41,778 bases of DNA from a virus (Duplodnaviria; Caudoviricetes): IMG/VR virus record IMGVR_UViG_3300049051_000014, positions 1 to 41,778 of that record; one strand, written 5' to 3'. Shown piece after piece: positions 1,243 to 40,965 of this stretch (positions within the stretch are counted from its first letter, which is position 1; every line of letters begins with the position of its first letter). The notes below the pieces were generated by a model. The model saw only the letters and a list, made by a program, of their open reading frames with translations, did no database searches and was not told the origin of the DNA. Both the position numbers and the translations under genes were made by a program.

Positions 1243-1269
1243 AAAAAGGCCAACCGTAGTGGTTGGCCT
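1243..1269 (-). terminator. Rho-independent terminator downstream of the displaced tRNA 3' end
   Basis: AGGCCAACC/GGTTGGCCT stem with 5-nt loop followed by T-run on minus strand. Confidence 0.65.
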
Positions 1270-1285
1270 AAGTCATTGATTTTGT

Positions 1286-1330
1286 TGGTCGGGGCGAGAA
1301 GATTCGAACTTCCGACCCCCTGCACCCCAT
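1286..1330 (-). repeat. Left att site: 45-bp duplication of tRNA-Pro 3' end
   Basis: TGGTCGGGGCGAGAAGATTCGAACTTCCGACCCCCTGCACCCCAT identical to 40889-40933. Confidence 0.95.
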
Positions 1331-1450
1331 TCGGGAACGCAGAAGACGTTATAGCCCTTAGGTACAGTCCATTTGCTTCTGAGGCGATAATATACAGTAT
1401 CTTGGAACTGCTGAGTTTAGCCCGGGAAACCGGCCGCTTTCCGCCGAATA

Positions 1451-2566
1451 TTATCGCGTCGACCAGGGCAGTTTGACGTCAATTTCCGACACAACCGGCA
1501 CCGCTTCCTTGATGTAGATCTCGGTTGTGCTCCCCTCCGTATGCACCAAGCGGTTCTGGATCGCCTGTTTGCTCTGGCCGGCCTTTGCCGCGTCCGTGGC
1601 GCCCAGGGCGCGCAAGTCCTTGAACTGCACGTCGTCAGTGATGCCGGCGCGTTCCCTGGCCCTATCCCACATCGAGAACAAGCCGGTCTTGCTGTACGCC
1701 TCTCCCTTGTGCTTGCCGGCCAGCTTCGGGAACAGGTAGCCGCACACCATGCCATGCTCGCGCTTGATGGCGCGCGCGCGGTCGATCACTTCCTGGATAG
1801 CCGGCGTGATCACGATGTCTACCGCCAGGCCGCTGCTGCGCTCCGTCTTCGTCGGTTTGAAGCGGATGCGGCCGGCCTCGATCTGGGATTCCTTCAGCAG
1901 TCGGAAGTCCTTGCCGCGCTGCCAGCACAGGTACGAAATGTCGATGATGCAGGCCAGCGTTGGGCCGCTGAGCGTCTTCCGGCCGTCCTTGCCGATGAAC
2001 GCTGCCGCCCGGATCGCTGCGACCTGGTCGTGCGTCGGAATGACCTCGCGGCGCTTCGTCTCGTAGTCGTCCAGATCGATCTGATCCAGCGGGTTGTCCT
2101 CCCGCAGCCCGAACTCCGAAATGGCGAAGCGGAACAGCTTGCGCGCCACGGCCGTGATCTTGCGGGCGGTGTTCGGCTTGCCGGCATAGTTGTTGCGCAG
2201 GAATTCGGACCAGTGCTTCGTCATCACGTCGCGCACCTGGAAGTCCTCGAAGTCGTCGGCGATCAGCGCCAGGTAGGCGGCGTACTGCTTGCGCACCTCC
2301 TCGCTGTACTTGGCCAGCTTGCGCGCGCGGAACTCCTGGCACAGGTGGACCATACCGGCCTTGTCGGTCTGGCGCTCACCGAGCAGCTTGCCCAGGGCTG
2401 TCAACATGGCGGCTTCGCCCTCGGCTACGCTGGCCAGCTTGATCCAGTGCTTCTCCTGGCCGTCGGCCGGGTCGCGCATCTTCTCGACGGCGTAGAACTT
2501 GTACGCGCCGTTCTTCACGTACACCCGGGCCGGCAGGCCCCGGTTGCTTTTGCGTTTCCGGTTCAT
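1451..2566 (-). CDS. int: Tyrosine recombinase / phage integrase
   Basis: Start MNRKRKSNRGLPARVY in ATGA overlap with upstream gene; catalytic residues R(GKD), K, KDLR, LVH, TTEIY; adjacent to att. Confidence 0.92.
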   Translation of the reverse strand: MNRKRKSNRGLPARVYVKNGAYKFYAVEKMRDPADGQEKHWIKLASVAEGEAAMLTALGKLLGERQTDKAGMVHLCQEFRARKLAKYSEEVRKQYAAYLALIADDFEDFQVRDVMTKHWSEFLRNNYAGKPNTARKITAVARKLFRFAISEFGLREDNPLDQIDLDDYETKRREVIPTHDQVAAIRAAAFIGKDGRKTLSGPTLACIIDISYLCWQRGKDFRLLKESQIEAGRIRFKPTKTERSSGLAVDIVITPAIQEVIDRARAIKREHGMVCGYLFPKLAGKHKGEAYSKTGLFSMWDRARERAGITDDVQFKDLRALGATDAAKAGQSKQAIQNRLVHTEGSTTEIYIKEAVPVVSEIDVKLPWSTR

Positions 2567-2928: not shown

Positions 2929-4101
2929 CTATTCGCCGCCTTTCTGGGATGCTCGGTATAGCTTTTCCCCCACTTTCAGCGGCCCGGCCAGCAGCCGGAA
3001 CAGTGGCCGGCCGCCGTCTTCGTAGCCCTCGAACTCGGCCACCGGCTCCTGCTGGGGCGGTGCTGCGCGGTACAGAACTTCCGCATCAAGGCCGTTTGCT
3101 TTTGCTTCGTCGTAGCCTTCCTTATTCGTTTCGGTCCAAGGCCACGCGTCCGGTGACCTAATGCGGTAAACCGGCTCTGCCGCCTGCTGGCTGGACGCAA
3201 GGGCGGCGCGGGCGTAGGCCCGGAAGGCGGCTCCCATGTCCTTCGTTTCCCGATACCAATTTCCATAGTCCGGCACGCCGTCTTTCACCCAAGGCAGCGG
3301 CGGCAGGTCTTGCCCGCCCTCTGGCGTGGCTTGCGCTGGGGTGGCAGGCAAAATTCCTTGGCTTCGCACCTGTTCCGCCACGTCTTCATCAACGTGATAG
3401 ACGATTGCGCAATACGCTTCTTCCAACTGCTCCTGAGTGGCGCAGTGATAGGCATCAACTAGCTTGCGGAATTCCTCGGTGTCGATGCTTTGCAGTTTGA
3501 TCCTTGTCGCCTGCTGCCCTGCATCGGTGGCGCTGGCCGCTTCCTTGGCGTCCTGTCCTTCTTGACACCAGTGCGCAGAAACCCTCACCAGGCAGGTGCC
3601 GCAGTACTGGCATTTTAGTTCCGATGCCTTGGCAGGCTCTGCCTGTGCAGTGCTGGCCTGTTGCAGCTTGTCGGATGGCTGCGAAAGCAACCCGTCCACC
3701 CTGCGGCGAATCATGCCGAGCACAGAAAACGCACAGCCCCAGAGATCTTCGTCGGATTCAGGAATGGCCGAGCCTAGCCCAAGTTTCGTCGCGATGAGGC
3801 GCAGGCGCTTTGCTGCGTCGGTGTCTACTTCCTTCCCGCCCTCCTGTTGCAAGGGCTGGGCGAGAAGGGCTTGCCGGGCAGCGCGGCGGTTCCACATGGA
3901 GATAACCGCTTCGCGGGTGTCGGCAATCTGTCCGGTGTTGCAGCTGGCACCCATGCACTCGATGGTGAAGCTCCCAGGGTGATCTGGCAGCCCCGGCAGC
4001 ATTGACTTGAGGATCACGCTGTGCGCGTGCGGCTCGTGTTCTTGGATGGCCGCCTCGGCGCCGCAGAATGGGCATGGCAGCAGCTCGTTCTTCTCGTTCA
4101 T
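2929..4101 (-). CDS. Lar (restriction alleviation)-like Zn-finger N-terminus on a mosaic phage early protein
   Basis: LLPCPFCG...IECMGASC...EAVISMWNRRA Lar-family pattern; second CxxC later; ATGA overlap at start. Confidence 0.7.
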   Translation of the reverse strand: MNEKNELLPCPFCGAEAAIQEHEPHAHSVILKSMLPGLPDHPGSFTIECMGASCNTGQIADTREAVISMWNRRAARQALLAQPLQQEGGKEVDTDAAKRLRLIATKLGLGSAIPESDEDLWGCAFSVLGMIRRRVDGLLSQPSDKLQQASTAQAEPAKASELKCQYCGTCLVRVSAHWCQEGQDAKEAASATDAGQQATRIKLQSIDTEEFRKLVDAYHCATQEQLEEAYCAIVYHVDEDVAEQVRSQGILPATPAQATPEGGQDLPPLPWVKDGVPDYGNWYRETKDMGAAFRAYARAALASSQQAAEPVYRIRSPDAWPWTETNKEGYDEAKANGLDAEVLYRAAPPQQEPVAEFEGYEDGGRPLFRLLAGPLKVGEKLYRASQKGGE

Positions 4102-4529
4102 TCGTTGCACTCCTTGCAAACCTTGCTGTCCCCGTCGAACTTGTCGACGTCCCGGCGCTGATGGCACACCTGGCATTTGCGGCGCGGCCGGCCGGAATCG
4201 GCCTTCGGCGTCATCAAGCCCAGGAACTGCTCCAGCTTCTCGCGCTGCTTCGAGGTCAGATGCATGACCTCGTCGCCGACGTAGATCGTCAGCTCGCCCG
4301 TGGTGAACAGCGCGGCGACCAGCTCAGGTTCCTGCTCTTCCGGTTTTTCCACCGGCAGTGAGGGCCCGGGCTTGGGCGGCGTGCGGCGCGTGTACTTGCG
4401 CTTCGGCTTCGGTTCATCGGTCGGCTTCGGCTCGGCGCCGGCAGTGGGCGCTGGTTCCGAAGTCCTGGCTTCATCTGCGCCGCCAGGCTTCTTGTCCAGG
4501 CGGCCGAATGGGTCATGCGGGTTGATCAT
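4098..4529 (-). CDS. Hypothetical protein, Pro/Lys-rich with C-terminal Zn ribbon
   Basis: ATG 4529 with GGAG RBS; KRKYTRR motif; CQVC...CKEC. Confidence 0.65.
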   Translation of the reverse strand: MINPHDPFGRLDKKPGGADEARTSEPAPTAGAEPKPTDEPKPKRKYTRRTPPKPGPSLPVEKPEEQEPELVAALFTTGELTIYVGDEVMHLTSKQREKLEQFLGLMTPKADSGRPRRKCQVCHQRRDVDKFDGDSKVCKECNE

Positions 4530-5820
4530 GTACGCTCCGTGAAATAGTCGATCCAGTGTGTGAAAGAATTCCGGCATATGACGTGAGGGATTCCGTCCTG
4601 TCATAGCCCTCCTGCTCATGCTCGCGCAGCCGGCGGATATAGCGGTTACGGACATACCGGCCGGCGGCGATGTGGTTCGGGTAGACCACGTAGCCGAGGA
4701 ATGGGATGCCGGCGCGCGCCGGCGCCAGGCGGACCTTGCGCGGATTGACGACCAGCCCGTCGGCGCCCAGCTTCTCCATTACCGCATCGCGCACGACGCG
4801 CAGCTGGTCCGCTGACTGGCCGACGAACACCAGGTCATCGACGTATCGGATATAGCGCTGCACGCGCAGCTGTTGCTTCACCCAGTGGTCGAAGTCGCAC
4901 AGGAAGATGTTGGCGAAAAGCTGCGACGACAGATTCCCGATCGGCATGCCCTTGTCACGGGTGCGGCGGTAGACGCTGTCAGGGGCGAAGAGGTCGTCGT
5001 ACAGGGGGCCGGTCCGGTAGGAGTCGATCAGGTTCACCAGCAGCCCGCGAAGCGCCTGATCGCCGATGTAGCGCAGCGCCCGGGCCTTCAGCAGGCTGTG
5101 GCTGACCGAGTAGAAGTACTTCGAAATGTCCATGTGCAAGGCCCAGCCGGCGCCGGCGGCGCGACAGAACTGCGCCAGGCGCTGCACGGCAGCATGGGTG
5201 CCACGGCCCGGCAGGTTGCCGTAGGTGTCATGGATCATGCGCGGCTGCCAGATCGGCAGCAGGTGCCGGTAGATCATCCAGTGCACGACGCGGTCCTTCA
5301 TCGGTGCATCGACCACGTTGCGGAATTTCTTGTCCTGCACCAGGAATTCTTTGTAGGGACCGAACGAATAGACGCCAGCGCGCAGGCGCTGCTGGATCGC
5401 GACCAGGTGGCGCAGCGGGTCCTGGTCGAACCGCTGCACGCGCCGGCTTGCCCCCTTGTTCTGGCGCGCGCGCTGCCAGCAGGTGAAGAGATTGGGCAGC
5501 GACGTCAGGCGCTGGAAAAGGCTTTCGCCTCGTTCCGCGCAGGCACCAGCTGCGGGCCCCTGCGCGGTTCTCGGTTTGGCTACTCGCCCTGCTTTCGGGG
5601 ATTCCCCAGGAGGATTTCGACCAAGAATTGACCTCCCGCCGGCGCGCGGCGCGGCGTCCAGGTGCATGATTTTTGGGTCAGCGGAACCCGACGTTGTCGT
5701 TCTCGTTGTCGGGCCAGTCGTTGTTGAGATTGAAGACCCCGGCATTCGACTCGGAGTTCCAGTTGCTGCTGCGGATGAGCGCATTGCTCGACTATCCAGA
5801 AATCCCCCCATGTCGATCAT
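4513..5820 (-). CDS. DGR reverse transcriptase (alternative start ATG 5667)
   Basis: Motifs KDRVVH, GRGTHAA, MDISKYFYSV, GMPIGNLSSQLFANIFL (DGR-type SQ), RYVDD, FLGY; adjacent to TR and avd. Confidence 0.95.
   Translation of the reverse strand: MIDMGGFLDSRAMRSSAAATGTPSRMPGSSISTTTGPTTRTTTSGSADPKIMHLDAAPRAGGRSILGRNPPGESPKAGRVAKPRTAQGPAAGACAERGESLFQRLTSLPNLFTCWQRARQNKGASRRVQRFDQDPLRHLVAIQQRLRAGVYSFGPYKEFLVQDKKFRNVVDAPMKDRVVHWMIYRHLLPIWQPRMIHDTYGNLPGRGTHAAVQRLAQFCRAAGAGWALHMDISKYFYSVSHSLLKARALRYIGDQALRGLLVNLIDSYRTGPLYDDLFAPDSVYRRTRDKGMPIGNLSSQLFANIFLCDFDHWVKQQLRVQRYIRYVDDLVFVGQSADQLRVVRDAVMEKLGADGLVVNPRKVRLAPARAGIPFLGYVVYPNHIAAGRYVRNRYIRRLREHEQEGYDRTESLTSYAGILSHTGSTISRSVHDQPA
5679..5794 (-). repeat. 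DGR template repeat (TR), 116 bp, part of the DGR template RNA
   Basis: AAC/AAT-rich repeat aligning without gaps to 6743-6858 and 11371-11486, mismatches only at TR adenines; diverged IMH*-like end (TGACCCAAA vs TGCACCAAG). Confidence 0.95.
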
Positions 5821-6662
5821 GGCGTCACCTTTGTGGACGAACGGATCAAACCGCCCACCAGGCGGCCAAGCTCGACGGCTAAGGAAGCTCGGTGTTCGAA
5901 GGCGAACTTGAGCTTGCTTAGACGCGGCGCCTGGGCGAGGTAGTGCTTCAGCAGGTCGACCTCGGCAGAAATGCGCTGCAGCAGCTCGGCCTTATGGCTG
6001 TCTAGGCCATAGCCGAAGACCGCCGGCATCAGCCGGGCCATGCAGCTGCGCAGGTTCTCGCCGTAGGTGGCGCGCAGGTCGCGCGGCATTTTGATGATGT
6101 CCTGCAGCAGCTGCGTGTCCAGCGCCTGGGCCTGGGATTTCATCTTGAAGCCGACGCTGTCCGGCTCGGCCAGCATCTTCTTCGCGGCAGCCTGGTTCAG
6201 CGCGCCACGCTGGCGCAGGTCCGCGATCACCTGGTGCACGATCTCATCGCTGACGCTGGCCATCAGGTCGCTGCCCGTGCCCTGGTCGGAAACGTAGACG
6301 GTGTAGCCCGAGCTTTGCGTGCCGAGGGCGACGGCGTATGGAATGCCGAACTCCTGCACCACGCTCCACAGCCGGCGCTTGAAATTCATGGCCGGGAAGC
6401 CCACGCGCAGATGCGGGTCTTCGCTGCTGCCGATCAGCTTGAGCTGGTAGCCCTTCAGCGTGGACAGAACGTGCGCTGACTTGTCGAAGGCATGGAGAAA
6501 CTTCCCAGCCTGCATCATGACCAGATGCTGCGGATATTGCTCGGCCAGCTTCGCCGCGGCGGTTGCCAGCGGATCGGCTTTGCCCAGTCCAACCTCGATG
6601 CCCTTGAAGGCCGAGATCGACAATTCGTTCATTTCCTCTTTGGTTGGTGTGATCTGTTGCAT
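5817..6662 (-). CDS. avd: DGR accessory protein: MutS-domain-I-like N-terminus fused to Avd four-helix bundle
   Basis: N-term YPQHLVMMQAGKFLHAFDKSA...VGFP resembles MutS_I; C-term KMPRDLRATYGENL...ELGRLVGGLIRS resembles bAvd; canonical position between VR and TR. Confidence 0.8.
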   Translation of the reverse strand: MQQITPTKEEMNELSISAFKGIEVGLGKADPLATAAAKLAEQYPQHLVMMQAGKFLHAFDKSAHVLSTLKGYQLKLIGSSEDPHLRVGFPAMNFKRRLWSVVQEFGIPYAVALGTQSSGYTVYVSDQGTGSDLMASVSDEIVHQVIADLRQRGALNQAAAKKMLAEPDSVGFKMKSQAQALDTQLLQDIIKMPRDLRATYGENLRSCMARLMPAVFGYGLDSHKAELLQRISAEVDLLKHYLAQAPRLSKLKFAFEHRASLAVELGRLVGGLIRSSTKVTP

Positions 6663-6690
6663 TTTTCTTGCTCTTACTGAATGTTGAAGC

Positions 6691-6712
6691 GGTCACCGCT
6701 TACGCGGCGACC
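6691..6712 (-). promoter_or_regulatory. Hairpin/cruciform downstream of VR1 (DGR target-recognition element)
   Basis: GGTCGCCGC-GTAA-GCGGTGACC on minus strand; same stem follows VR2. Confidence 0.8.
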
Positions 6713-6732
6713 CGTGACCCGAAACCAGACGC

Positions 6733-7629
6733 CTACTTGGTGCAGCGGAACCCGACGACGTCGTACCCGCCGTCGGGCCAGCCGCGGTTGAGACGGAAGA
6801 CCCCGGCATTCGACCCGGAGCTCCAGAGGCTGCCGCGGATGAGCGCATCGCCCGACCAGTTCAGCGTGGTGCTGTCGTAGACATAGCCGCCACCTTTTGC
6901 ATAGCAGTCTTCAGGAAGGGTGGAGCGGCTCAGGGAATCCTTGCCGATCGGTTTGCTGACGATTCCCTCTTCGTTGCCCTGCACGTTGTCGAACACCCAC
7001 GTCCAGACGTTGCCCGAGAAGTCGTAGATACGCTCACCGTTGGCCAGCTCGTGCCAGCGGCGCTCCTCGGCGTGCGGCGACTCGTAATTGCCGTCCTGTG
7101 GGCCGTCGACAGTGCCCTTGTGCAACCCCTGATAGAGCTTCCCGGCGCCAACCTTGCCACCGGACCAGTTCACGTCCTGGTGCCAGATCTGGTGCGCGAT
7201 GGCCAGGCATTGCAGCTCGGTGATCAGCGCGAAGCCGGCGGCAGCGCATGCCTCTTTGGCGGCTGCGAAATTGATGTTCACCCAGGGCGTGCCGTCCTTC
7301 GACACAGCCGCTTTCCCGTCCGCCCCTTTGCTACAGGCATAGCGGCCAACCTGGAACGCCGGGACCTCGGTGCCGTCCGGCAGCACGGTCTTCGGCACGG
7401 TGACGAAGTCGTCCTGGCCCGTGGTCAGGTGCAGGTCATGCAGCAGGCCGTCGGTGCCCTTCAGCACTGTGCCGTCGCGATCGACAATCAGGCTGCGGCC
7501 GCGGCCATCGACCACCTTGCGCAAGCCCTCCCATTCGTCGACCACCGAAAGGCCGCGCACGATCTGGTCGCCGGCGCGGGCGAAAAACGATTGTTCGGGG
7601 ACCAGTTCGATTTTCATTGCGATATTCAT
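6733..7629 (-). CDS. DGR target protein 1, FGE-sulfatase/CLec-fold with C-terminal variable region
   Basis: PWVNINFAAAKEAC, IYDFSGNVWTWV, LIRGSLW...VGFRC motifs; VR1 at 3' end. Confidence 0.9.
   Translation of the reverse strand: MNIAMKIELVPEQSFFARAGDQIVRGLSVVDEWEGLRKVVDGRGRSLIVDRDGTVLKGTDGLLHDLHLTTGQDDFVTVPKTVLPDGTEVPAFQVGRYACSKGADGKAAVSKDGTPWVNINFAAAKEACAAAGFALITELQCLAIAHQIWHQDVNWSGGKVGAGKLYQGLHKGTVDGPQDGNYESPHAEERRWHELANGERIYDFSGNVWTWVFDNVQGNEEGIVSKPIGKDSLSRSTLPEDCYAKGGGYVYDSTTLNWSGDALIRGSLWSSGSNAGVFRLNRGWPDGGYDVVGFRCTK
6743..6858 (-). repeat. DGR variable repeat VR1
   Basis: 19 mismatches vs TR, all at TR adenines. Confidence 0.95.
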
Positions 7630-7641
7630 CTGGTAGGTTCC

Positions 7642-8160
7642 TTATGCGGCTTGGGGAAAGAGGTCTTCGGCCTTGGCCGGCGCCGGCGGCGTCAGCTTCA
7701 GCTCGATATCGCGCTGGATGAATTCGGACAGCTTGCCGATGTCGTCCGGGTCGGGGTGGGCGATGATGCGGAAGCAGATGCCGACCGAGCCGCCGTTCAA
7801 TGGTTCGATGACGAAGTGATCCAGCTTCAAGTCTTCGCCCAGGTCGATGTTGCTGTCACCGCCCAGGCCGTAGTCGATCTGTGCCTGGTAGCCGGCAGCT
7901 TCCCAGTCCCATTTGATGGCCCCCATCTTCGGATAGCGCAGCAGCGTCAGGCCGTCGCCGTCGACCACCTGGTCAACCAAATCCGGGTTCTCATCCTTCT
8001 TGAACAGGTGCTGGCGCAGCTCGGGGTGGAAGTGGATCAGGGTAGTGCTCGGGCATGTGGCCTCGATCTTCAGGTCCAGCGCGGCGCGCGTGTCCTCACC
8101 GTGCTTCTCGGCGCGCAGGTTGACGTGGGCGAGTTTGACGGTCTGGTCAAGTTCGAACAT
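7642..8160 (-). CDS. Phage hypothetical protein
   Basis: ATG 8160 with AGGAG RBS; 172 aa, phage-like codon usage. Confidence 0.75.
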   Translation of the reverse strand: MFELDQTVKLAHVNLRAEKHGEDTRAALDLKIEATCPSTTLIHFHPELRQHLFKKDENPDLVDQVVDGDGLTLLRYPKMGAIKWDWEAAGYQAQIDYGLGGDSNIDLGEDLKLDHFVIEPLNGGSVGICFRIIAHPDPDDIGKLSEFIQRDIELKLTPPAPAKAEDLFPQAA

Positions 8161-8180
8161 GGGGTTACTCCTTGGTTGGA

Positions 8181-8792
8181 TTAAACAGGGATATGCAGGT
8201 CGTGAACGTCGCGCATGGCCAGCCACTCGCCGTTCTTGGGGCTGTACAGGCCTTCGGCGCCCATGATGCGGTCGACCAGCAGCTTCGTGCGGTGGACGTC
8301 GGTCAGGCAGTAGTCGATCACCTTGCCAATCTGGCCGCGCTGCCAGAGCACTGGCGCCAACGCTCCGTTGCCGGTCTTGCCTGGCATGCTATTGGCCTTG
8401 CAGGTGTCGTCCAGGCCGTAGCCGGCGTGCGATGGATAGCTGAATGCCGGGCCCAGGCCTGCAGCGGCCCAGAGTTCGCGCAGCACGTCATAGCAGCGCG
8501 CCTCATTCGGCGTGGCCCAACCAGTGGCGGAGAGGACCGCATTGTCGAACGGGATGCTGTTGAAGCCAATCGCCACGGGATCGCGCTCTTTCAGCAGCTG
8601 CGCCCACTCGTCGCGATTATCTTCGGTGAAGACGCGATAACGGTTTTCGTGATAGTCGTAGACACCGTTGACTGAGATACCCATGTTGGCGTGGTCATGC
8701 CAGCCGCCGCAGTATTCGATGCCCTCTTCCTTGCTGCCGTCCCGGTTCGGGATGCCGCGGATGATCTCTAGGTCGTAGATGATGATGTTCAT
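8181..8792 (-). CDS. RNase H-fold / DEDD-like 3'-5' exonuclease
   Basis: IIYDLE (ExoI), IGFNSIPFD (ExoII), YCLTDV (ExoIII); ATGA overlap. Confidence 0.75.
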   Translation of the reverse strand: MNIIIYDLEIIRGIPNRDGSKEEGIEYCGGWHDHANMGISVNGVYDYHENRYRVFTEDNRDEWAQLLKERDPVAIGFNSIPFDNAVLSATGWATPNEARCYDVLRELWAAAGLGPAFSYPSHAGYGLDDTCKANSMPGKTGNGALAPVLWQRGQIGKVIDYCLTDVHRTKLLVDRIMGAEGLYSPKNGEWLAMRDVHDLHIPV

Positions 8793-9031
8793 GCAGGGTT
8801 CCTCGTTTTGGTTTGTTGGTCGTACTGGTACTGAAGGTATGGCTTGCGGATGAAGTCGTGGAAGCGCTTCTGCGCCCGCTCGTCGCGGTCGATCTCGCCT
8901 CGGGACTTCACCTCGCAGATGGCGCGCACGCTGCTCACGGCCGTGGCCTCGTCCGGCACGCGCAGGAAGCGCTGGAAAGCTGCCTCCTTGCACCGGAGCG
9001 CGAGCCATTGGCTGATGCGCTGTGCGGCCAT
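8789..9031 (-). CDS. Phage hypothetical protein
   Basis: 80 aa ORF tightly packed between recT and exonuclease gene. Confidence 0.7.
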   Translation of the reverse strand: MAAQRISQWLALRCKEAAFQRFLRVPDEATAVSSVRAICEVKSRGEIDRDERAQKRFHDFIRKPYLQYQYDQQTKTRNPA

Positions 9032-9034
9032 CTA

Positions 9035-10075
9035 TTACTCTCCCGTCAGCGCGGCGCGGCGCTCCTGGTACAGCGCATTCAGCTTGGTCTGCTCGGCGCT
9101 GTCGAATACCTCACGGATCTCGTCGGCGATCACATCCAGCACGTCGAGGTCGCTGGCGTTGTTCAGGCGGTTGAACAAGGTCTGGTAGAGGGAGCCGCCA
9201 GCCTGGGGGGCTTCTTCCATCGCCGGCGCCGCCTCTGCCAGTTGCTCGGCCTGCTCCAGCTCGGCCATCGGCTCCACTTCGGTGAAGGCGCCGTCGATGA
9301 TCGCGCCGTTTTGCTGGCTGATGCCGGCGTCGGCCATTTCATCGATGCCGACTGCTTGCTGGATCTCGATCGAGACCGGCAGGAATTTGAACAGGCGGCG
9401 CACGACTGTCTTAAGAGCCATGGCGCTGTAGTCGGTCACCCATGGGCCGCTTTCAGCCGCCTTGCTGCGGGCGCGGACGCCCTCCACTTCGGCGCGCGAC
9501 ATGACGTCGAACTGGATGCCGCCGTCCTTCAGTTTGGCCACGGCGTAGACGAAGCGCAGCTTGTCGGGAACCGCCCGGTTCGGGTTCTGCCAGTCTGGTT
9601 CGTGCTCCAGCTTTGCATCCAGGCCCAGCTTGCAGTCGAACTTGTCGCCCTCGTAGACGGCCCGGGCGTCGATGCTCACAATCTGGCCGCTGCGACGGGC
9701 CAAGTCGATCATGCCGCGATAGCCGATGATCACCTGCGCCTCGGTCCGTTTTTGCCATTGGCTTCCGACCTTGATGTTGCGGTCGAAGGGCAGAAGGTAT
9801 GCGTGGCCCAGTGCATTGCCCGGCTCCAGGCCGAGCTGCGCGCACTGGATCACGGCGCCCAAGAATGACATCGGGTCGCACTGTGCCAACTTTGGCACTT
9901 TCCGCATTTCTGTGGTGGCGATCCGAGCCATGCGCTCGGCGGTCATGTGGCGCGGCAGCGCGGCCTTGATCTGCGCTTGCACCTTGGGATTGGCCATCAG
10001 GTGGGCCAGATCTTTCGGCTCGTCGGCCTTGGCCGGCGTGCCGGTGACAACGGATTTCAGCGCGGAGGTACTCAT
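9035..10075 (-). CDS. recT: RecT single-strand annealing protein
   Basis: ALPRHMTAERMARIATTEMRKVPKL...QLGLEPGNALGHAYLLPF...IIGYRGMIDLARRSGQI, strongly RecT-like. Confidence 0.95.
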   Translation of the reverse strand: MSTSALKSVVTGTPAKADEPKDLAHLMANPKVQAQIKAALPRHMTAERMARIATTEMRKVPKLAQCDPMSFLGAVIQCAQLGLEPGNALGHAYLLPFDRNIKVGSQWQKRTEAQVIIGYRGMIDLARRSGQIVSIDARAVYEGDKFDCKLGLDAKLEHEPDWQNPNRAVPDKLRFVYAVAKLKDGGIQFDVMSRAEVEGVRARSKAAESGPWVTDYSAMALKTVVRRLFKFLPVSIEIQQAVGIDEMADAGISQQNGAIIDGAFTEVEPMAELEQAEQLAEAAPAMEEAPQAGGSLYQTLFNRLNNASDLDVLDVIADEIREVFDSAEQTKLNALYQERRAALTGE

Positions 10076-10984
10076 TTATGCTTGCTCCTTCAGTTTGGAC
10101 AGTCGGAAGTCCACGTAACGCTGTGCGTCGTAGTGAACCGAATAGGGTTTCTTGCTGATGATCTTGCGGGTGAAGGCCATGCCATCGTTGAATTTGATGG
10201 CGCTGGCGTTGCCCATCTCAGCCAGCAGGTGAGCCTTGGAACCATCGAGGATCGCCTGGTAGTGGTCACGCATTTCAGCGGCCGTGGCCATTACCGCCCT
10301 CCAGTGCTCGTGCATGGCCGTGGCATCGATGACGGTTCCATCCGTCCCTGGATACAGACGCTTGAGGGTTTCGATCACATCCTTGTGCTCGTAATCGAGC
10401 GGCGGCTGCACCTTCGGCTGCACATATTTGGTCCAGAACTCGACGGCGCGCGCACGCATGGCGGTGATCAGTTCGTCATCTCGCTCCACGACATACGGTT
10501 TCAGGTCATCGCCGATCAGCGCGAAGGCCCTGCAGCGGCGCGCGCCCTTTATTCCCATGCCGTGCTGCACCTGGGCCACGTAGTGCAATGGCAGCTGGTC
10601 GGTATCGGTCTCGCCCCATTCCTTGGCCTTGAACGGATGGACCGTCTTGATCTCGCCGTTCTCGATCTGACCGGTTTCCTCGTCGAGATATTCGAAGTCG
10701 ATTTCGGCGGCCATGTATCCGAACTCCGGATCGATGTAGCGCTGATTACAGGCCACGATATTCAGGCCGTGCTCCTGACGGATCATATCGAGGATGTAGG
10801 GCTCCATGCGCGAGCCGCGGCGCTTGGCGTTGGCGTTTTGGCCGTTCTCGGCGCGCGGCCGGATCTTGTCCATCCAGAGGTCGACAATGTTGCGCCACGG
10901 GCTCACGCCCAAAATGGCGGCGATGTCGCTGCCACCGATGTATTTGGTACGGTCAAGCACCAGGGTTTCTTTGGATGCGTTCAT
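10076..10984 (-). CDS. YqaJ-like viral recombinase exonuclease
   Basis: IGGSDIAAILGVSPW, EIKT, HYVAQVQHGM motifs; upstream of recT. Confidence 0.9.
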   Translation of the reverse strand: MNASKETLVLDRTKYIGGSDIAAILGVSPWRNIVDLWMDKIRPRAENGQNANAKRRGSRMEPYILDMIRQEHGLNIVACNQRYIDPEFGYMAAEIDFEYLDEETGQIENGEIKTVHPFKAKEWGETDTDQLPLHYVAQVQHGMGIKGARRCRAFALIGDDLKPYVVERDDELITAMRARAVEFWTKYVQPKVQPPLDYEHKDVIETLKRLYPGTDGTVIDATAMHEHWRAVMATAAEMRDHYQAILDGSKAHLLAEMGNASAIKFNDGMAFTRKIISKKPYSVHYDAQRYVDFRLSKLKEQA

Positions 10985-11130
10985 AGGGCACCAAAATTTT
11001 GTGGGTTGAGGACTGGCGAATCGATCAGCTCGGCCAGGGCCAGCAGCACCAGCACCACGGCCATCGGCAGCCACGCGTAGGTGTCGAGCAGGTACACCAG
11101 GCCGGCGGCCAGCTGGCGCAGGCGTTTCAC
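10981..11130 (-). CDS. Small membrane protein (49 aa, not in ORF track)
   Basis: GTG start, MKRLRQLAAGLVYLLDTYAWLPMAVVLVLLALAELID...; 4-bp overlaps at both ends. Confidence 0.6.
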   Translation of the reverse strand: MKRLRQLAAGLVYLLDTYAWLPMAVVLVLLALAELIDSPVLNPQNFGAL

Positions 11131-11297
11131 GCTGGCGCTCCTTCGCGCGCGGCCTCGATCGCGCGCTGCGCTTCCTCACGGTCGACCAGCTCGCGCACCT
11201 GATACCCGCGCGCCTGCATGCCGCTGACCATGTGCGCGGGGACATTCAACCAGTGGCCGTCTTCTGGCAGCTTCACCTGGTGCAAGATCGTTTCCAT
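11127..11297 (-). CDS. Small hypothetical protein
   Basis: METILHQVKLP..., strong AGGAGGAG RBS. Confidence 0.7.
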   Translation of the reverse strand: METILHQVKLPEDGHWLNVPAHMVSGMQARGYQVRELVDREEAQRAIEAAREGAPA

Positions 11298-11321
11298 TAC
11301 TCCTCCTGTTTGCGAAAGGCT

Positions 11322-11342
11322 GGTCACCGCGTTGCGGCGACC
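11322..11342 (-). promoter_or_regulatory. Hairpin/cruciform downstream of VR2
   Basis: GGTCGCCGC-AAC-GCGGTGACC, stem identical to that after VR1. Confidence 0.8.
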
Positions 11343-11354
11343 CGGGACCAGTGT

Positions 11355-12083
11355 TCAGAGACCCTTGGTGCAGCGGAACCCGACGTAGCCGCGCCCGACG
11401 TCGGGCCAGCCGTAGTCGAGACGGAAGACCCCGGCATTCGACCCGGAGCCCCAGTAGCCGCCGCGGACGAGCGCATAGCCCGACCAATCGGCGCCGGCAC
11501 GCGGCCGCCAGCCCATGCCCTTCTCCATCGACGGATAGGGCGCGGTGGCGATCGACGGCGAATCGGCAGTGAAGGCCTTGGCGACCAGGCCGTCCGCATC
11601 GCCCTGCACGTCATCGAAGACCCAGCTGTAGACGCAGCCGGCCACGTCGAACACGGTCTCGCCGTTGGAGAGCAGGAAGGCGCGCTTCTGCTGCTCGTAG
11701 GTGCCGGTCGGCGCTTCGTCCAGGTCGTAGTCGTCGTGCAGGCCCATGTTCAGGGTGCCCTCGCCGACCGCGCGGCCGGACCAGTTGGCAGCCACGTTGA
11801 AGACGTTCCAAGCCAGGGCCAGCGCCTGCGACTCGCGGATCAGTTGGCCGCCCATGGCCTCGCACTGCAGCTTGGCGTCAGCGAAGTCGATTTCCACCCA
11901 TGGCGGCAGATCGGCGTTCACCACCGGCTGGCGCTCATCACCCTTCGCGATGTGGAACTGGCTGACCAGGAAGGCCGGCACGACCAGGCCGTTCGGCAGC
12001 GTGGTTTCAGGGACGGTGACGAAGCCTGATGCGCTGACCACGGCTGCAGGTGCTGCTTGTTCGATGACGCTTTCATTGCTCAT
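11355..12083 (-). CDS. DGR target protein 2 (remote), FGE-sulfatase/CLec-fold paralogue of target 1
   Basis: ATG 12083 with GGAG RBS; FVTVPETTLPNG, PWVEIDFADAK, VFDVAGCVYSWVFDDVQG, LVRGGYW...VGFRC; VR2 at 3' end. Confidence 0.9.
   Translation of the reverse strand: MSNESVIEQAAPAAVVSASGFVTVPETTLPNGLVVPAFLVSQFHIAKGDERQPVVNADLPPWVEIDFADAKLQCEAMGGQLIRESQALALAWNVFNVAANWSGRAVGEGTLNMGLHDDYDLDEAPTGTYEQQKRAFLLSNGETVFDVAGCVYSWVFDDVQGDADGLVAKAFTADSPSIATAPYPSMEKGMGWRPRAGADWSGYALVRGGYWGSGSNAGVFRLDYGWPDVGRGYVGFRCTKGL
11371..11486 (-). repeat. DGR variable repeat VR2
   Basis: 22 mismatches vs TR, all at TR adenines. Confidence 0.95.
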
Positions 12084-12571: not shown

Positions 12572-12599
12572 GGTGTGCTCCGTGTTTGTCGTTGGAGTC

Positions 12600-12639
12600 A
12601 TTAAACACCATGTTTAAACACGAGTCAAACATTTTGTTT
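12600..12639 (-). promoter_or_regulatory. PL promoter with OL operators
   Basis: TTGACT-17bp-TTTAAT on minus strand overlapped by palindromes AAACA-N3-TGTTT at 12603-12615 and 12627-12639. Confidence 0.85.
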
Positions 12640-12650
12640 AAACACGTGCG

Positions 12651-12673
12651 AAAAAAAACCCGCCGAAGCGGGT
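12651..12673 (-). terminator. Rho-independent terminator of the cI operon
   Basis: ACCCGC-TTCG-GCGGGT followed by a long T-run. Confidence 0.85.
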
Positions 12674-12701
12674 CATTGGACTATTTGATGGGCCGCGGCA
12701 A

Positions 12702-12932
12702 CTACTTAGCCGACGGATTAAAGAACCCAGACAAGATCCATCGGGTTATGCCATGGGTGATCTTGTAGAAGGCCGCAGAAAGCACGAGGCCCAAGATGAC
12801 TGCGACGAGAATATGCCAAATGTTGCGATCACTCCTATCGAGGCTGACGACCAGCACCCCGAGAAAGATAAGGATGGAAAAAAATCCCCAAATGACTGCG
12901 CTTAATCGTGTCAGTCCAAGATAAAAGTTCAT
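12702..12932 (-). CDS. Two-TM membrane protein in immunity region
   Basis: 76 aa, two hydrophobic helices, AT-richer than phage core. Confidence 0.65.
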   Translation of the reverse strand: MNFYLGLTRLSAVIWGFFSILIFLGVLVVSLDRSDRNIWHILVAVILGLVLSAAFYKITHGITRWILSGFFNPSAK

Positions 12933-12966
12933 CGCTGTCCTCTGTTCGCCCCTTGCTAACCGCGCC

Positions 12967-13251
12967 TCATTGGCAGCTGAAAAGCACTTCACTTTCAGGC
13001 CACCGCCCGAATGCACCTGCCGGTATTTCCTTGCTGTGTACTACCTTCACCTTCTTTCCGGTGTTGGCGCAAAATTTGTCCGCCTCCTGGATGGCGGCAA
13101 CTTTCAGCGATTCAGTGGTTACCCAGAACCCATTACCTTGGCGCGTTACCGTGTACATGCCCTCATTCCGAGGCACGATACCGGTCGTGGGTGTGGAACA
13201 TGCGCAAAGCAAAGCCAATACAGTGAAGATGACTCCAATTTTCATCATCAA
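12967..13251 (-). CDS. Small lipoprotein co-transcribed with cI
   Basis: Signal peptide with lipobox LCAC; start overlaps cI stop. Confidence 0.75.
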   Translation of the reverse strand: MMMKIGVIFTVLALLCACSTPTTGIVPRNEGMYTVTRQGNGFWVTTESLKVAAIQEADKFCANTGKKVKVVHSKEIPAGAFGRWPESEVLFSCQ

Positions 13252-13937: not shown

Positions 13938-13959
13938 AGGCGGCATTGTCGAGGCAACT

Positions 13960-14013
13960 AAACAAGCTGTGTTACACATTTTGTTTGACTCTGTTTTAAA
14001 CATGGTGTTTAAT
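13960..14013 (+). promoter_or_regulatory. PR promoter with OR1-OR3 operators
   Basis: TTGACT(13985)-17bp-TTTAAT(14008); operators AAACATGGTGTTT 13998-14010, ACACATTTTGTTT 13974-13986, AAACAAGCTGTGT 13960-13972. Confidence 0.85.
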
Positions 14014-14045
14014 CCGAACAGTAACCCCACATTTCCGGCGACATC

Positions 14046-26562: not shown

Positions 26563-27456
26563 ATGAAGAAGATCTTTGCCGCCGTGCTGTTGGCCGGACT
26601 GTCCTGCCTCGCGCTGGCGCAATCCCCATATGCCCTGCGCGTCGATCAGCGCAATTCATCCAACACCGCCTACGTCAGCCGCTTCATCGCGCCCGACACT
26701 TCGATGGACTGCCTGGTTTCGCTGCCATCCACCGCCGCAGGTTCCGTGCCGACTTGCCTGAAGCTGGGCGCCTCGTTCACGGTGGCGTCGGGCATCATCA
26801 ATGTACCGGTGACGACCGGGCCGCAGGGTGCGCCAGGCGAGCCAGGCTTGCAAGGGCCCCAAGGCATCCAAGGCATTCAGGGCATCCAGGGTGAGCAGGG
26901 TATTCAAGGCATCCAGGGGCCGGCCGGCGCCGCTGGGACCACCGACTTCAACGGCCTGACCAATGTTCCCGCCACCTTCGCCCCGAGCGCACACACGCAC
27001 CCGGCCAACCAGGTCAGCGACAGTACCAGCACTGGCCAAGCCCTGATGACGGCAGCCGATGCGGCCGCGGCACGGGCGATCCTGGGCATCCCGGCGCGCA
27101 GCTTCAATTACACCACCCGCAGCCTGAACACCTGCTTCCAGGCTTCAGCGAGCAGGGATGCGCTGGTCACGTATGGCGTGGACATTGCAACTTCCATCAC
27201 CCTGACGGCGGGCCAGCAGGGCACCGTGTACCTGGAGACGTTCTCCGACGTCGATTGCACTGCCGGCGCGCAGGAGATCAGCCGCTTCGTCAACGGCAAT
27301 ACCGGCACGCTGACCGTTGGGCTCGCCCTGTCGCAAAACGTGACAGGCACGCTTACCGGGGTGGTGCCGGCGGGCCGATACATCAAGCTGCGCACCGAAA
27401 ACAACGTCGGCACGCCCACCTTCACTGCGCGCCCAGGCCAGGAGATACTGCTGTGA
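26563..27456 (+). CDS. Collagen-like repeat protein with N-terminal signal peptide
   Basis: [20 protein letters not shown] signal; 14 Gly-X-Y triplets at 26818-26943; FAPSAHTHP fibre motif. Confidence 0.8.
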
Positions 27457-28392: not shown

Positions 28393-28602
28393 ATGATCGC
28401 CTTCGAAACCATGCAGGTCGGCGACGTGCATGACCTCCCCGCACGCTGGATTCCTGACGCGCGCGCGGAATTCAACCGCGCTTTGGCCTATGCCAACGAG
28501 ACGGGCGGCAAGGTGCAATTCGTGATCGACAACATCCCGCTGGCGCCCGAGCAGATCACGGGTCCCGATAAACACCGCTACACCATCACGAGGGTCCAAT
28601 AA
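28393..28602 (+). CDS. Small hypothetical protein
   Basis: 69 aa ORF packed between adaptor and fibre genes. Confidence 0.55.
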   Translation: MIAFETMQVGDVHDLPARWIPDARAEFNRALAYANETGGKVQFVIDNIPLAPEQITGPDKHRYTITRVQ

Positions 28603-30500
28603 TGGCACTGGAAACCGCAATCTACGTCAACCAGCTGGTGCCGGCCAACCCGCCCGGATCCGACCCCAAGAGCCAGGGCGACGACCATATCCGGCTGCTG
28701 AAATCGGTGATGCAAAACACCTGGCCCGCGCTGACCGGCGCCGTCACGGTCGGCCAGGGCGTCATCAACTTCCTGTCGGGCGCCACCAGCAATATCCAGA
28801 CCCAGCTGAACGACAAGGCCTCGCTGACGGGCACGAACGTCTGGTCCGGTACCAACACCTTCAACGGCCAGACGAACCTGCCGACCCTGACGCAGATCGG
28901 GTCCACCGGCTACCTGCAGATCAGCTACATCAACACGCTGACCAGCAATGTGCAGGACCAGATCAACAATATGACGGCAACGCTGCAGGACATGGTGGAC
29001 GACGCGATCGCCGCGCTGGCCGGCCAGGTGTTCGAAAACGCCCCATGGACCACCCTGATCGCCGGCGAGCCGATCCAGATCGGGGACGCTGTGAGCCAGG
29101 CGATCGACGGCCGCATGTACTGGGCCGCACCGCCGGCAGTCGATCAGACGCGCCCGCTGAACCTGACCGGCGCCACCGCGCTGTCGACGCAGCTGTGGGC
29201 CTTCGCCGCGAATGCATCGAGCTCCGCGCACCGGATTTGCCAGCTCCCGACCGGCAATATCGTCATCGGCTACACGGTGAGCGGCGCCGTGCCCAAATGG
29301 GTACAGATCAACTCCAGCGGCGCGCAGACCATCGCGGAAACCAATCTCCCGAGCGCGCCGGTGAGCGACCCGGTGCAATCTATTGTCCCGCTCGGGACGG
29401 ATGGCAAATTCGTCGTGCTGTATGGCTCGCTGGCCGGCCCAGGGAACGTCTGGGCGCAGTCTTACACCGCTGCTGGCGCCACGCTGACCTCGGTGAACTT
29501 CGGCAATGCAAATTCCATCTGCATGTGCCGTCTATCGGATGGTTCGGTGGCGGTGATGCGTGCGGTCCGAAATTCCAACACCCAGGTTAGCCTGTTCAAT
29601 GCTTCGACCGGCGCAGTGACCACAATCACGGTGCTGACCCATGCCAGCGATGCCAACCCGGTTGCGCGCCTGACGCCCATTGCGGCTGGTGGCTTCAATG
29701 TGTTCAGCAAGAACACCGCCACCTTGAACATGGAGATGCGAACTTTCAATAACGCTGGCGTTTTGCAGGCGACGGTCACGGTTGGCACCAATCTCAACCA
29801 TAATCAACTGTATGGCTTGCGCGATGGCCGTTGCATGACCACTGACAATGCAACAACGATGCGCATGGTGACGAATGCCGGCGCGGTCTTGTGGACGGCC
29901 ACGGCGCCATTCTCCGGCCCGAATGGCTTCACCGACAGCGCCAATGGGACCTTCGGCTACAACCGCACCGGCACCCCGGCGCGCATCTTCCATGTGTCGT
30001 CGGATGGCCTGACGGTTACCTCTGCACTCTCGACCAACGCAGGCGCGGCGATGATGGCTCCGGCGGTGATCGACAACGGGTATCTGGCCGTGGTGCAGGG
30101 CAACCCGACCTTCCGCTACCTGATCGATACCGCCTGCAATGTCATCACTTCGGACGCTACCGGCACGATTGACGATGATCTGTCCGCCGGCCTCGGCTTC
30201 AACGACATTCTGGACTTCTCGGTGTCGAGCAACGACCGGCAGCCGATGCTGGGCTTCTACCAGGTTACCTCGGGCGACTCGGTCCGCCTGACCCATGCCA
30301 TCGGCAACCGCTCGCCGGAAGGCTGCGCCACCACAGCGGCGTTCCAGCGCGGCGACAACTTCAACGTGCAGATCGGCGGCTACTTCAACCCGACCCGCAT
30401 CACCACCTGGAACACCACCTTCGACGCCCGGGCGAACGCGATTCCGGGCCAAAAAGGCTCGATTCTCGGCACCACAGCAACCTTCCAAGGACTCAGCTAA
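28602..30500 (+). CDS. Tail fibre / receptor-binding protein
   Basis: N-terminal anchor MALETAIYVNQLVPANP..DPKSQGDDHIRLLKS, coiled coil, long beta-rich C-terminus. Confidence 0.75.
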   Translation: MALETAIYVNQLVPANPPGSDPKSQGDDHIRLLKSVMQNTWPALTGAVTVGQGVINFLSGATSNIQTQLNDKASLTGTNVWSGTNTFNGQTNLPTLTQIGSTGYLQISYINTLTSNVQDQINNMTATLQDMVDDAIAALAGQVFENAPWTTLIAGEPIQIGDAVSQAIDGRMYWAAPPAVDQTRPLNLTGATALSTQLWAFAANASSSAHRICQLPTGNIVIGYTVSGAVPKWVQINSSGAQTIAETNLPSAPVSDPVQSIVPLGTDGKFVVLYGSLAGPGNVWAQSYTAAGATLTSVNFGNANSICMCRLSDGSVAVMRAVRNSNTQVSLFNASTGAVTTITVLTHASDANPVARLTPIAAGGFNVFSKNTATLNMEMRTFNNAGVLQATVTVGTNLNHNQLYGLRDGRCMTTDNATTMRMVTNAGAVLWTATAPFSGPNGFTDSANGTFGYNRTGTPARIFHVSSDGLTVTSALSTNAGAAMMAPAVIDNGYLAVVQGNPTFRYLIDTACNVITSDATGTIDDDLSAGLGFNDILDFSVSSNDRQPMLGFYQVTSGDSVRLTHAIGNRSPEGCATTAAFQRGDNFNVQIGGYFNPTRITTWNTTFDARANAIPGQKGSILGTTATFQGLS

Positions 30501-40793: not shown

Positions 40794-40888
40794 GCCGAAA
40801 TGAAAAAACGCAGCGTGGATATTATCGCTGACGATAATATACAGTGCTGCGTTTCTATACAGTGCCACTCGTAAGTGGTTGATTCTAA

Positions 40889-40965
40889 TGGTCGGGGCGA
40901 GAAGATTCGAACTTCCGACCCCCTGCACCCCATGCAGGTACGCTACCAGGCTGCGCTACGCCCCG
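40889..40965 (-). tRNA. tRNA-Pro(GGG), 77 nt with encoded CCA; 3' 45 bp form the right att site
   Basis: CGGGGCGTAGCGCAGCCTGGTAGCG...CCTGC-ATGGGGT-GCAGG...GTTCGAATC...CGCCCCGACCA cloverleaf. Confidence 0.96.

Follow-up and report, generated by a model that had tools for sequence, protein, structure and literature searches.

Two small C-type lectin-fold targets of a prophage diversity-generating retroelement lie in the early operon and are very likely not virion proteins

The window studied here is the whole 41,778-nt stretch of the IMG/VR record IMGVR_UViG_3300049051_000014 (Duplodnaviria; Caudoviricetes), which holds a complete lambdoid soil prophage between tRNA-Pro attachment (att) repeats and, within it, a diversity-generating retroelement (DGR) with two target genes, T1 and T2 (table 1). 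The prophage genes include an integrase, cI, a cro-like gene, cII, RecT/YqaJ, and an SU10-type short-tail virion module. In DGRs, a reverse transcriptase (RT) and the accessory protein Avd copy the RNA of a template repeat (TR) with errors at adenines, and the cDNA replaces a variable repeat (VR) in the target gene. An earlier reading of this DNA (hereafter the original prediction) had reported one TR and two VRs that differ from it only at TR adenines, and the comparison of the repeats bore this out: 19 differences in VR1 and 22 in VR2 all fell on the 30 adenines of the TR (hypergeometric p 2e-14 and 2e-17), and each VR lay in frame at the C-terminus of its own target. The 20 variable codons of the TR correspond to a theoretical repertoire of 4^30 = 1.2e18 DNA variants and about 4.5e17 protein variants. 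When both strands of the window were scanned with 30-nt pieces of the TR, leaving adenines free and allowing at most three other mismatches, no further VR was found; the pieces matched only the TR, VR1, and VR2, besides isolated single matches of one piece at three places (9672, 11791, and 14621), and self-BLAST revealed no A-biased repeats in the window beyond the TR/VR1 and TR/VR2 pairs. A GC-rich hairpin motif was restricted to two places in the window, behind VR1 and behind VR2, and the two VRs have 3' bases in common that differ from those of the TR, which together form the IMH/IMH* (initiation of mutagenic homing) arrangement. Among 117 distinct TR-VR pairs (52 TRs) of related loci, 2017 of 3105 A sites were changed, versus 43 of 10233 non-A sites. 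These TRs mostly serve two to four targets, and one three-target DGR had a tandem duplication of avd-TR with two Avd and two TR-like copies (L003 7626-10548).

Adenine-specific variation was present not only among these relatives but also among contigs from soil sequencing runs. Allele evidence was drawn from assembled contigs only, and runs X3 and X5-X20, which held small or partial shares, were left out. Three alleles of VR1 were found, with unchanged flanks. In run X1, from which the window may derive, the assembly graph splits at VR1 into alleles with depths of about 17 and 7.8; over 98 nt they show 15 differences, of which 14 fall on TR adenines, altering 13 residues; the flanks, compared between a 2351-nt piece and a 4599-nt contig, showed 0 differences. 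Run X2 contributed the third allele on an 838-nt contig, with all 16 differences at TR adenines and 15 residues altered. The X1 and X2 alleles are in frame and contain no stops. The VR1 alleles show recent DGR output, and the element in the window is a real and recently active DGR.

Table 1.— Features of the prophage and its DGR, with related loci mentioned in the text. Positions refer to the window unless a locus is named.
Feature	Position	Strand	Details
Template repeat (TR)	5679..5794	-	116 nt, 30 adenines, AAC/AAT-rich
VR1, 3' end of target T1 gene	6743..6858	-	19/19 differences at TR adenines
VR2, 3' end of target T2 gene	11371..11486	-	differs at 22 positions, all TR adenines
GC-rich hairpin downstream of VR1 (homing element)	6692..6712	-	22 nt, full extent 6691-6712
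GC-rich hairpin downstream of VR2	11322..11342	-	stem identical to VR1 hairpin
Target T1	6733..7629	-	298 aa, pI 5.4; beta-rich N-terminal module of ~70 aa ("domain A") + FGE-type CLec
Target T2	11355..12083	-	242 aa, pI 4.4; bare FGE-type CLec domain; second gene after PL
DGR reverse transcriptase	4513..5820	-	RVT_1 E 5e-21; phrog_1423 E 5e-101; GNLSSQ and YVDD motifs
Accessory protein	5817..6662	-	281 aa, pI 9.3; MutS_I-like N-terminal domain + C-terminal Avd
RecT and YqaJ recombination genes	9035..10984	-	between T2 and T1; Pfam, PHROG
PL-like promoter	12596..12641	-	TTGACT-17-TTTAAT under two 17-bp palindromic operators (OL); by eye
Terminator	12657-12674		separates leftward PL-like promoter from cI transcript
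PR-like promoter	13958..14018	+	three operators (OR), inverted OL copy, between cI and cro; operator scan
Left attachment site	1269..1340	.	tRNA-Pro 3' copy; att repeat
Integrase gene	1451-2566		beside left attachment site
Right attachment site	40872..40965	-	intact tRNA-Pro(ggg); att repeat 40872-40943
Tail fibre	28602..30500	+	632 aa; phrog_6465 at N-terminus; no VR, no CLec match
Second, BPP-1-like tail-fibre DGR	L173 11845-15773 (G016); L185 1553-4823 (G022)
Chromosomal copy of the target	L108 6798-10681; also L096, L099, L103, L105-L107, L109, L118		carbamoyltransferase also in L112

Both targets are small and acidic, and their predicted assignment to the FGE type among C-type lectin (CLec) folds was upheld by Pfam and PHROG matches, a structure model of T2, and Foldseek. 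They belong to the FGE-subtype CLec class (category b1 of Wu), with the CLec fold, modelled in T2, and a C-terminal VR. The AlphaFold model of T2, built on a 116-sequence alignment, is a confident single domain (predicted local distance difference test [pLDDT] 92.9) made up of the CLec core and 20 disordered residues. Its best PDB matches were TaqVP (5vf4, E 1e-7, template-modelling [TM] score 0.53), FGE, and Mtd (E 5e-5), with TM scores of about 0.45-0.55, and the T2 sequence had no match among PDB chains at E<=1 and none among cultured-phage records. T1 matched Pfam FGE-sulfatase below the cut-off (E 3e-4) and also phrog_2889. Its N-terminal module matched no named family in Pfam or PHROG and no cultured-phage record, and leads from an atlas search were all under 0.9; a single-sequence structure prediction of T1 was unusable (pLDDT 38.9). 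The Mtd-like N-terminal attachment and trimer domains of a BPP-1-type target were found neither in the T2 model nor in the T1 N-module. Pfam FGE-sulfatase was matched by 81 of the 116 aligned family members at E<=0.01, and scaffold residues were invariant across all 116. The catalytic triad of FGE is a fixed Ser-Cys-Cys in the VR-equivalent segment (PMC6328139), and no conserved Cys pair was found in the 117 VRs. The predicted lack of a signal peptide agreed with two observations: a hydropathy scan detected no export signal in T1 or T2, and the N-termini are not conserved in the family.

The target family comprises at least 702 clusters at 90% identity, with members in records of Burkholderiales, Rhodocyclales, and Nitrosomonadales. 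It was present in 10 of 301 genomes drawn from the family of the closest relative, prophage G023, counting the centre genome. Four kinds of N-terminus were distinguished: bare, a T1-type module (of about 70 aa), a module of 80 aa, and a DUF4406/nucleoside deoxyribosyltransferase-like domain, the last in 1 of the 116 aligned proteins (L077). In the lytic phages JWF, BcepF1, and PBb001 the 80-aa module turns up by itself or with different fusion partners, among small genes or genes of DNA metabolism. The latter two N-terminal partners thus belong to early regions, which favours targets that act as early cytoplasmic binders. BcepF1.044, annotated "sulfatase-modifying factor", was rejected as a family member; it has the N-terminal module in common, not the CLec domain. 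A search for long forms by word index gave one weak match in the range 698-2000 aa, and long relatives were later revealed by profile search. Two complete phage records carry one member each with no TR or RT (G010, L154-L156; G017, L166-L168), and the latter encodes a DNA polymerase of its own. The DGR of these orphan targets was lost or never present. In a few loci (L076, L094) the RT or target genes are broken. Moreover, 40%-identical T2 homologues were seen on two Janthinobacterium lividum megaplasmids (H44, H45). In the VRs of the family, Tyr, Arg, and Leu were above, and Cys, His, Ile, and Pro below, the position-independent expectation at AAY codons.

The targets lie in the leftward early operon. 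Reading leftward from PL, T2 is second and is followed by YqaJ, RecT, T1, avd, TR, RT, and integrase. The 17-bp palindromic operators had five matches versus 0.2 expected, in clusters at 12601-12641 and 13958-14012, and both clusters overlap an identical promoter-like sequence, which was read by eye. A sigma-70 consensus scan did not report PL and PR, because their -10 box has no A at position 2. The lambda-like promoter anatomy makes control of the cassette by CI likely. T2 is 16.5 kb from the fibre gene and on the opposite strand, which agrees with the predicted distance of more than 16 kb from the tail genes; the predicted lack of a VR in the fibre was borne out as well. The att sites and the PL/PR operators, like the hairpins behind both VRs and the MutS_I-Avd fusion described below, had no place in the original prediction.

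We then asked whether the location of the targets tracks the virion genes. The relative set came from a whole-record search with 43 of 133 loci, from which 18 of 22 virus records and the G023 prophage region were taken; genes were called by our own script and labelled via PHROG matches of cluster representatives. A DGR of this lineage was found in 17 of the 19 relative records. All 36 VRs of these DGRs fell in the small CLec family and none in virion genes; 34 were located in called genes and two were confirmed by whole-record search. A tail receptor-binding target of the BPP-1 type was thus not found, and neither the window nor the 17 relatives has a VR of the lineage DGR in a tail gene. With the window included (20 records), none of the 38 called family genes came closer than 6.3 kb to a labelled virion gene, and 35 of them lay on the opposite strand. 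The carriers were contractile-tail (tail-sheath), long-tail (tape-measure), and short-tail phages and one Mu-like record, so that the targets showed no link to virion type. The prophage G023 is identical to the window at 84% in T1, 81% in T2, 91% in Avd, and 87% in RT, and tblastn found no match in it to any of the window's terminase-to-endolysin genes. Conversely, G004 has its virion module in common with the window, with fibre similarity confined to the first 45 residues. Two further phages, G016 and G022, possess a second, classical fibre-avd-TR-RT DGR in the tail module, whose RTs are about 30% identical to the early RT; as near relatives, the two make up roughly one case. Because an anchor-less domain follows the early module across unrelated virions, the targets are unlikely to be parts of the virion. 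The claim of the original prediction that they are early-operon rather than tail proteins is well supported by this comparison and by the promoter anatomy, and we consider a non-virion, early role very likely on these genomic grounds. Each of the three refuting conditions that could be addressed was decided in favour of that claim: tail genes held no VR of this DGR, run contigs and relatives did vary at adenines, and the targets were tied to no virion type.

The predicted RT, with its SQ and YVDD motifs, was recovered. Its identity to cultured-phage records was at most 34% among the matches listed. In all 61 distinct loci the start codon of the RT and the stop of avd share the sequence ATGA, and the frame is open through TR and spacer to the RT core in 48 of them, including five with spacers of 410-540 nt; in the window this stretch runs from 5820 to 5530 on the minus strand. 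Given the conserved ATGA and the stop-free frame, ribosomes probably read the RT through its own template, and translation and templating could then compete. TRs overlapping annotated RT open reading frames (ORFs) form a known class (PMC3521204). A start at 5667 was dropped, as the ATG there is not conserved, whereas that at 5820 is. RNA folding of the spacer was no better than that of shuffled sequences (z -1.0). In the accessory protein, residues 177-276 matched Avd (phrog_3206), consistent with the basic pI and canonical position of Avd, and residues 37-117 matched MutS_I (E 9e-5, 23.2 bits versus a Pfam cut-off of 20.6); a match to NF033474 (E 4e-7, 30.5 bits) was below the NCBIfam cut-off of 80 bits. 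A MutS_I-like domain is thus encoded with avd, as in the MSL-type DGRs of architecture D (Wu 2018), and is here fused to it. Of the 78 loci that matched the fusion, 75 carried it at full length, and no match to it was found among cultured-phage records.

A copy of the target also exists on chromosomes. In a quick tree of the target family, made without bootstrap, 12 rows from Massilia, Telluria, and Duganella formed one clade (Shimodaira-Hasegawa-like approximate likelihood ratio test [SH-aLRT] 99) nested among phage targets. They have no TR and a fixed VR-equivalent, and no hairpin was found in the rows shown. The gene ends an operon of GDSL-hydrolase, carbamoyltransferase, and small-protein (118-aa) genes in at least nine loci, beside spoT in eight; the operon genes were named for L108 and L112 and assigned by synteny in the remaining loci. 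This gene set, we take it, recalls sxtL/sxtI/sxtK-like operons. Since frozen, non-variable copies sit in a chromosomal operon, the target scaffold can apparently serve a fixed host function without export signals.

Several neighbouring genes deserve mention in their own right. Directly downstream of the RT in the leftward operon, a gene at 2929-4176 (minus strand) encodes a Lar-like restriction-alleviation domain; restriction alleviation by Lar is a known type of counter-defence. After cI and before the terminator, the region 12702-13251 (minus strand) contains a 94-aa lipoprotein-like ORF, which had no NCBIfam match, and a hydrophobic ORF; these are possibly exclusion genes expressed in the lysogen. 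A collagen-repeat protein in the head-tail region (26563-27456, plus strand), with no VR, may be a second fibre or a decoration protein. In a DGR-carrying Thauera prophage (G002), a BstA-like abortive-infection gene lies beside an anti-repressor (L137 13914-14783). The host of the window prophage is likely a member of the Oxalobacteraceae, because its closest relative lies in a Pseudoduganella metagenome-assembled genome.

Based on these observations, a sequence of events can be proposed. In the lysogen, CI would keep the whole cassette silent, and upon induction PL would drive T2, RecET, T1, avd, TR, and RT, as the promoter anatomy suggests. RT and Avd would then rewrite the VRs by the established DGR chemistry. 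The MutS_I-like domain may shield the heteroduplex from mismatch repair, a role proposed because MutS lowers DGR retrohoming 5- to 10-fold in Bacteroides (PMC11601372), and the neighbouring RecT may help homing, as DGR-coupled recombineering (10.1101/2025.03.24.644984) suggests by analogy. Comparative genomics leads us to expect that the targets stay in the cytoplasm. The last step is the weakest: the ligands would be host proteins that block phage growth, with selection acting on progeny genomes that infect new hosts. We put at even chances the reading in which the targets act early and in the cytoplasm, as tunable binders and inhibitors of host proteins, likely defence factors, and not as virion adhesins; inhibition of defence or regulatory proteins is what we infer, as the original prediction did. 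A fuller, antibody-like form of counter-defence is more tentative, and we hold it somewhat less probable than not. There, in temperate phages of Betaproteobacteria, a repressor-controlled library of one to four small intracellular binders, paralogues whose N-terminal modules can be swapped, would be produced per lytic cycle and its variants selected against the defence or regulatory proteins of the new host, separately from, and sometimes beside, a tail-fibre DGR, with the MutS_I-Avd fusion as repair shield, the RT translated through its template, and a frozen binder donated to Massilia.

Several observations weigh against the reading of the targets as cytoplasmic inhibitors diversified for host proteins. 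Three of the 38 family genes are on the strand of the nearest virion gene, two in the Mu-like G003 and one in G014, where the gene sits among rightward early genes. The allele in run X4 equals the minor allele of X1 and is hence not independent, and contigs cannot tell ongoing mutagenesis from co-existing clones. The amino-acid bias at AAY codons may not be pure selection, as RT bias can give part of it; the BPP-1 RT itself is described as favouring Tyr from AAC (PMC12875486). Others take TaqVP, the best structural match, for a tail component that binds receptors (PMC11601372), the domain has distant relatives in large Ig-repeat surface proteins, revealed by profile search, and also in tail-fibre tips, and Roux et al. 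warn that "non-structural" targets may be unrecognised structural proteins (PMC8144416). Finally, the Massilia operon speaks for the chemistry of small molecules or glycans more than for inhibition of proteins.

The last point bears on the possibility that the ligands of the variable pocket are nucleotide signals, metabolites, or glycans and that it serves as a sponge or sensor tuning early infection or the choice between lysis and lysogeny. The frozen clade behind a carbamoyltransferase in at least nine loci and the DUF4406/nucleoside deoxyribosyltransferase-like fusion would fit this, but the fusion is a single case among the aligned proteins, 20 variable codons on a broad surface suit large ligands, and Mtd, for comparison, binds a protein receptor (PMC10743442), so that we think small-molecule binding unlikely. 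Binding aimed at other mobile elements (co-resident prophages, satellites, or co-infecting phages), whose repressors, anti-repressors, or replication proteins would be the ligands, seems rather unlikely to us but slightly easier to accept. The anatomy suits it as well as it suits inhibition of host proteins, since in the window, G023, G010, and G015 a family gene follows cI as the first or second gene called, and fast-evolving competitors would reward hypermutation; silence in the lysogen, which control by PL would imply, makes a lasting defence against superinfection improbable.

The remaining readings have lower standing. That the targets are accessory adhesins or receptor-binding proteins, attached non-covalently to the virion and encoded far from the tail genes, is suggested by a fold common to Mtd, TaqVP, and fibre tips and by the proposal that similar small second targets bind host cells (PMC10743442). 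Yet T2 in its model has no domain outside the CLec core, the family occurs on unrelated virion types, with targets 81-84% identical beside a non-homologous virion module, phages with a diversified fibre use a separate tail-module DGR for it, and the promoter position is early; we regard this reading as quite improbable. Very improbable, in our view, is release at lysis as soluble decoys masking receptors on debris or neighbouring cells: no export signal was seen and distant relatives are surface adhesins, but the early operon is ill-suited to such a task and the benefit would be weakly tied to the encoding genome. We give equally little credence to a near-neutral passenger cassette with targets of little function. 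Members without a DGR (G010, G017) and the broken genes (L076, L094) would be expected of it, whereas the invariant scaffold across 116 proteins, TRs that mostly serve two to four targets, in-frame alleles, and the spread of the cassette over unrelated phages would not.

Should the targets indeed neutralise defence proteins as cytoplasmic binders, they would represent a phage form of adaptive counter-immunity and provide a compact cytoplasmic scaffold for binders, 225 aa long, that comes with its own diversifier. To our knowledge, the switching of host range is the only role that experiments have shown for phage DGRs. This lineage separates two roles of DGRs, since its targets follow the early module across virions and two phages hold both kinds. 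Moreover, the cassette is carried, for example, by Undibacterium arcticum, Thauera butanivorans, Solimicrobium silvestre, Pseudoduganella rivuli, and Duganella sp. BJB476, and such named environmental strains make the question directly testable. The novelty implied by the original prediction was overstated, as non-structural phage DGR targets had already been published (PMC8144416, PMC8008677, PMC7883833). Such targets were flagged in surveys, and what is new here is a clean comparative case for a non-virion role. In the literature searched, which did not extend to subscription papers, no description of the FGE-type MutS_I-Avd lineage as an early-operon system and no tests of such targets were found.

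Multi-target DGRs, FGE-only targets, and MSL genes are all covered by Wu 2018 (PMC5758913). Entry 60 of its Table S1, Sideroxydans lithotrophicus ES-1, shows the same TG-AVD-TR-RT order, CLec1/FGE-sulfatase targets of which one is adjacent and one 6.7 kb away, a strong hairpin, and an avd of 846 nt, as long as the fusion here, with a 114-nt TR about 25 nt behind it. The entry differs in that the table places it on a chromosome and gives neither phage homologs nor an MSL nor any functional reading; judged by its layout rather than by sequence, it is probably of the same lineage. The betaproteobacterial CLec2/DUF1566 entries in that survey likewise have targets that are short and stand-alone, two to three per DGR and in part several kb off, but differ in target class and in an Avd of about 125 aa, and the DGR of Burkholderia phage Magia is described with two short targets (PMC7883833). 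MSL proteins (Wu 2018; Bacteroides Msl, PMC11601372) resemble the accessory protein in that a MutS_I-like domain is encoded directly before Avd; they are separate genes in the rows compared, whereas here one chain holds both in nearly all loci. TaqVP, from a Thermus aquaticus prophage, is a monomeric FGE-type CLec protein (PDB 5VF4, PMC6328139), with 381 aa versus 242 in T2 and 16% identity.

Among viral DGRs, two target clusters, PC_00007 and PC_00009, are classed as non-structural by Roux 2021 (PMC8144416) and resemble the present case as phage DGR targets away from structural genes. For the distal DGR target of Quimbyvirus, a role in phage-host conflict was proposed by Benler 2021 (PMC8008677); that DGR, as described, also targets a tail-module gene, whereas here no target is structural. 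The Bordetella phage BPP-1 (mtd-avd-TR-brt) has in common with the window the A-only TR/VR differences, Avd, RT (31% identity), a hairpin after the VR, and the FGE-type CLec fold of its target. Its Mtd is a tail protein with domains of the beta-prism and beta-sandwich kinds for trimerization and attachment (PMC6328139). Unlike BPP-1, the prophage described here has two anchor-less targets in its early operon and an Avd fused to a MutS_I-like domain.

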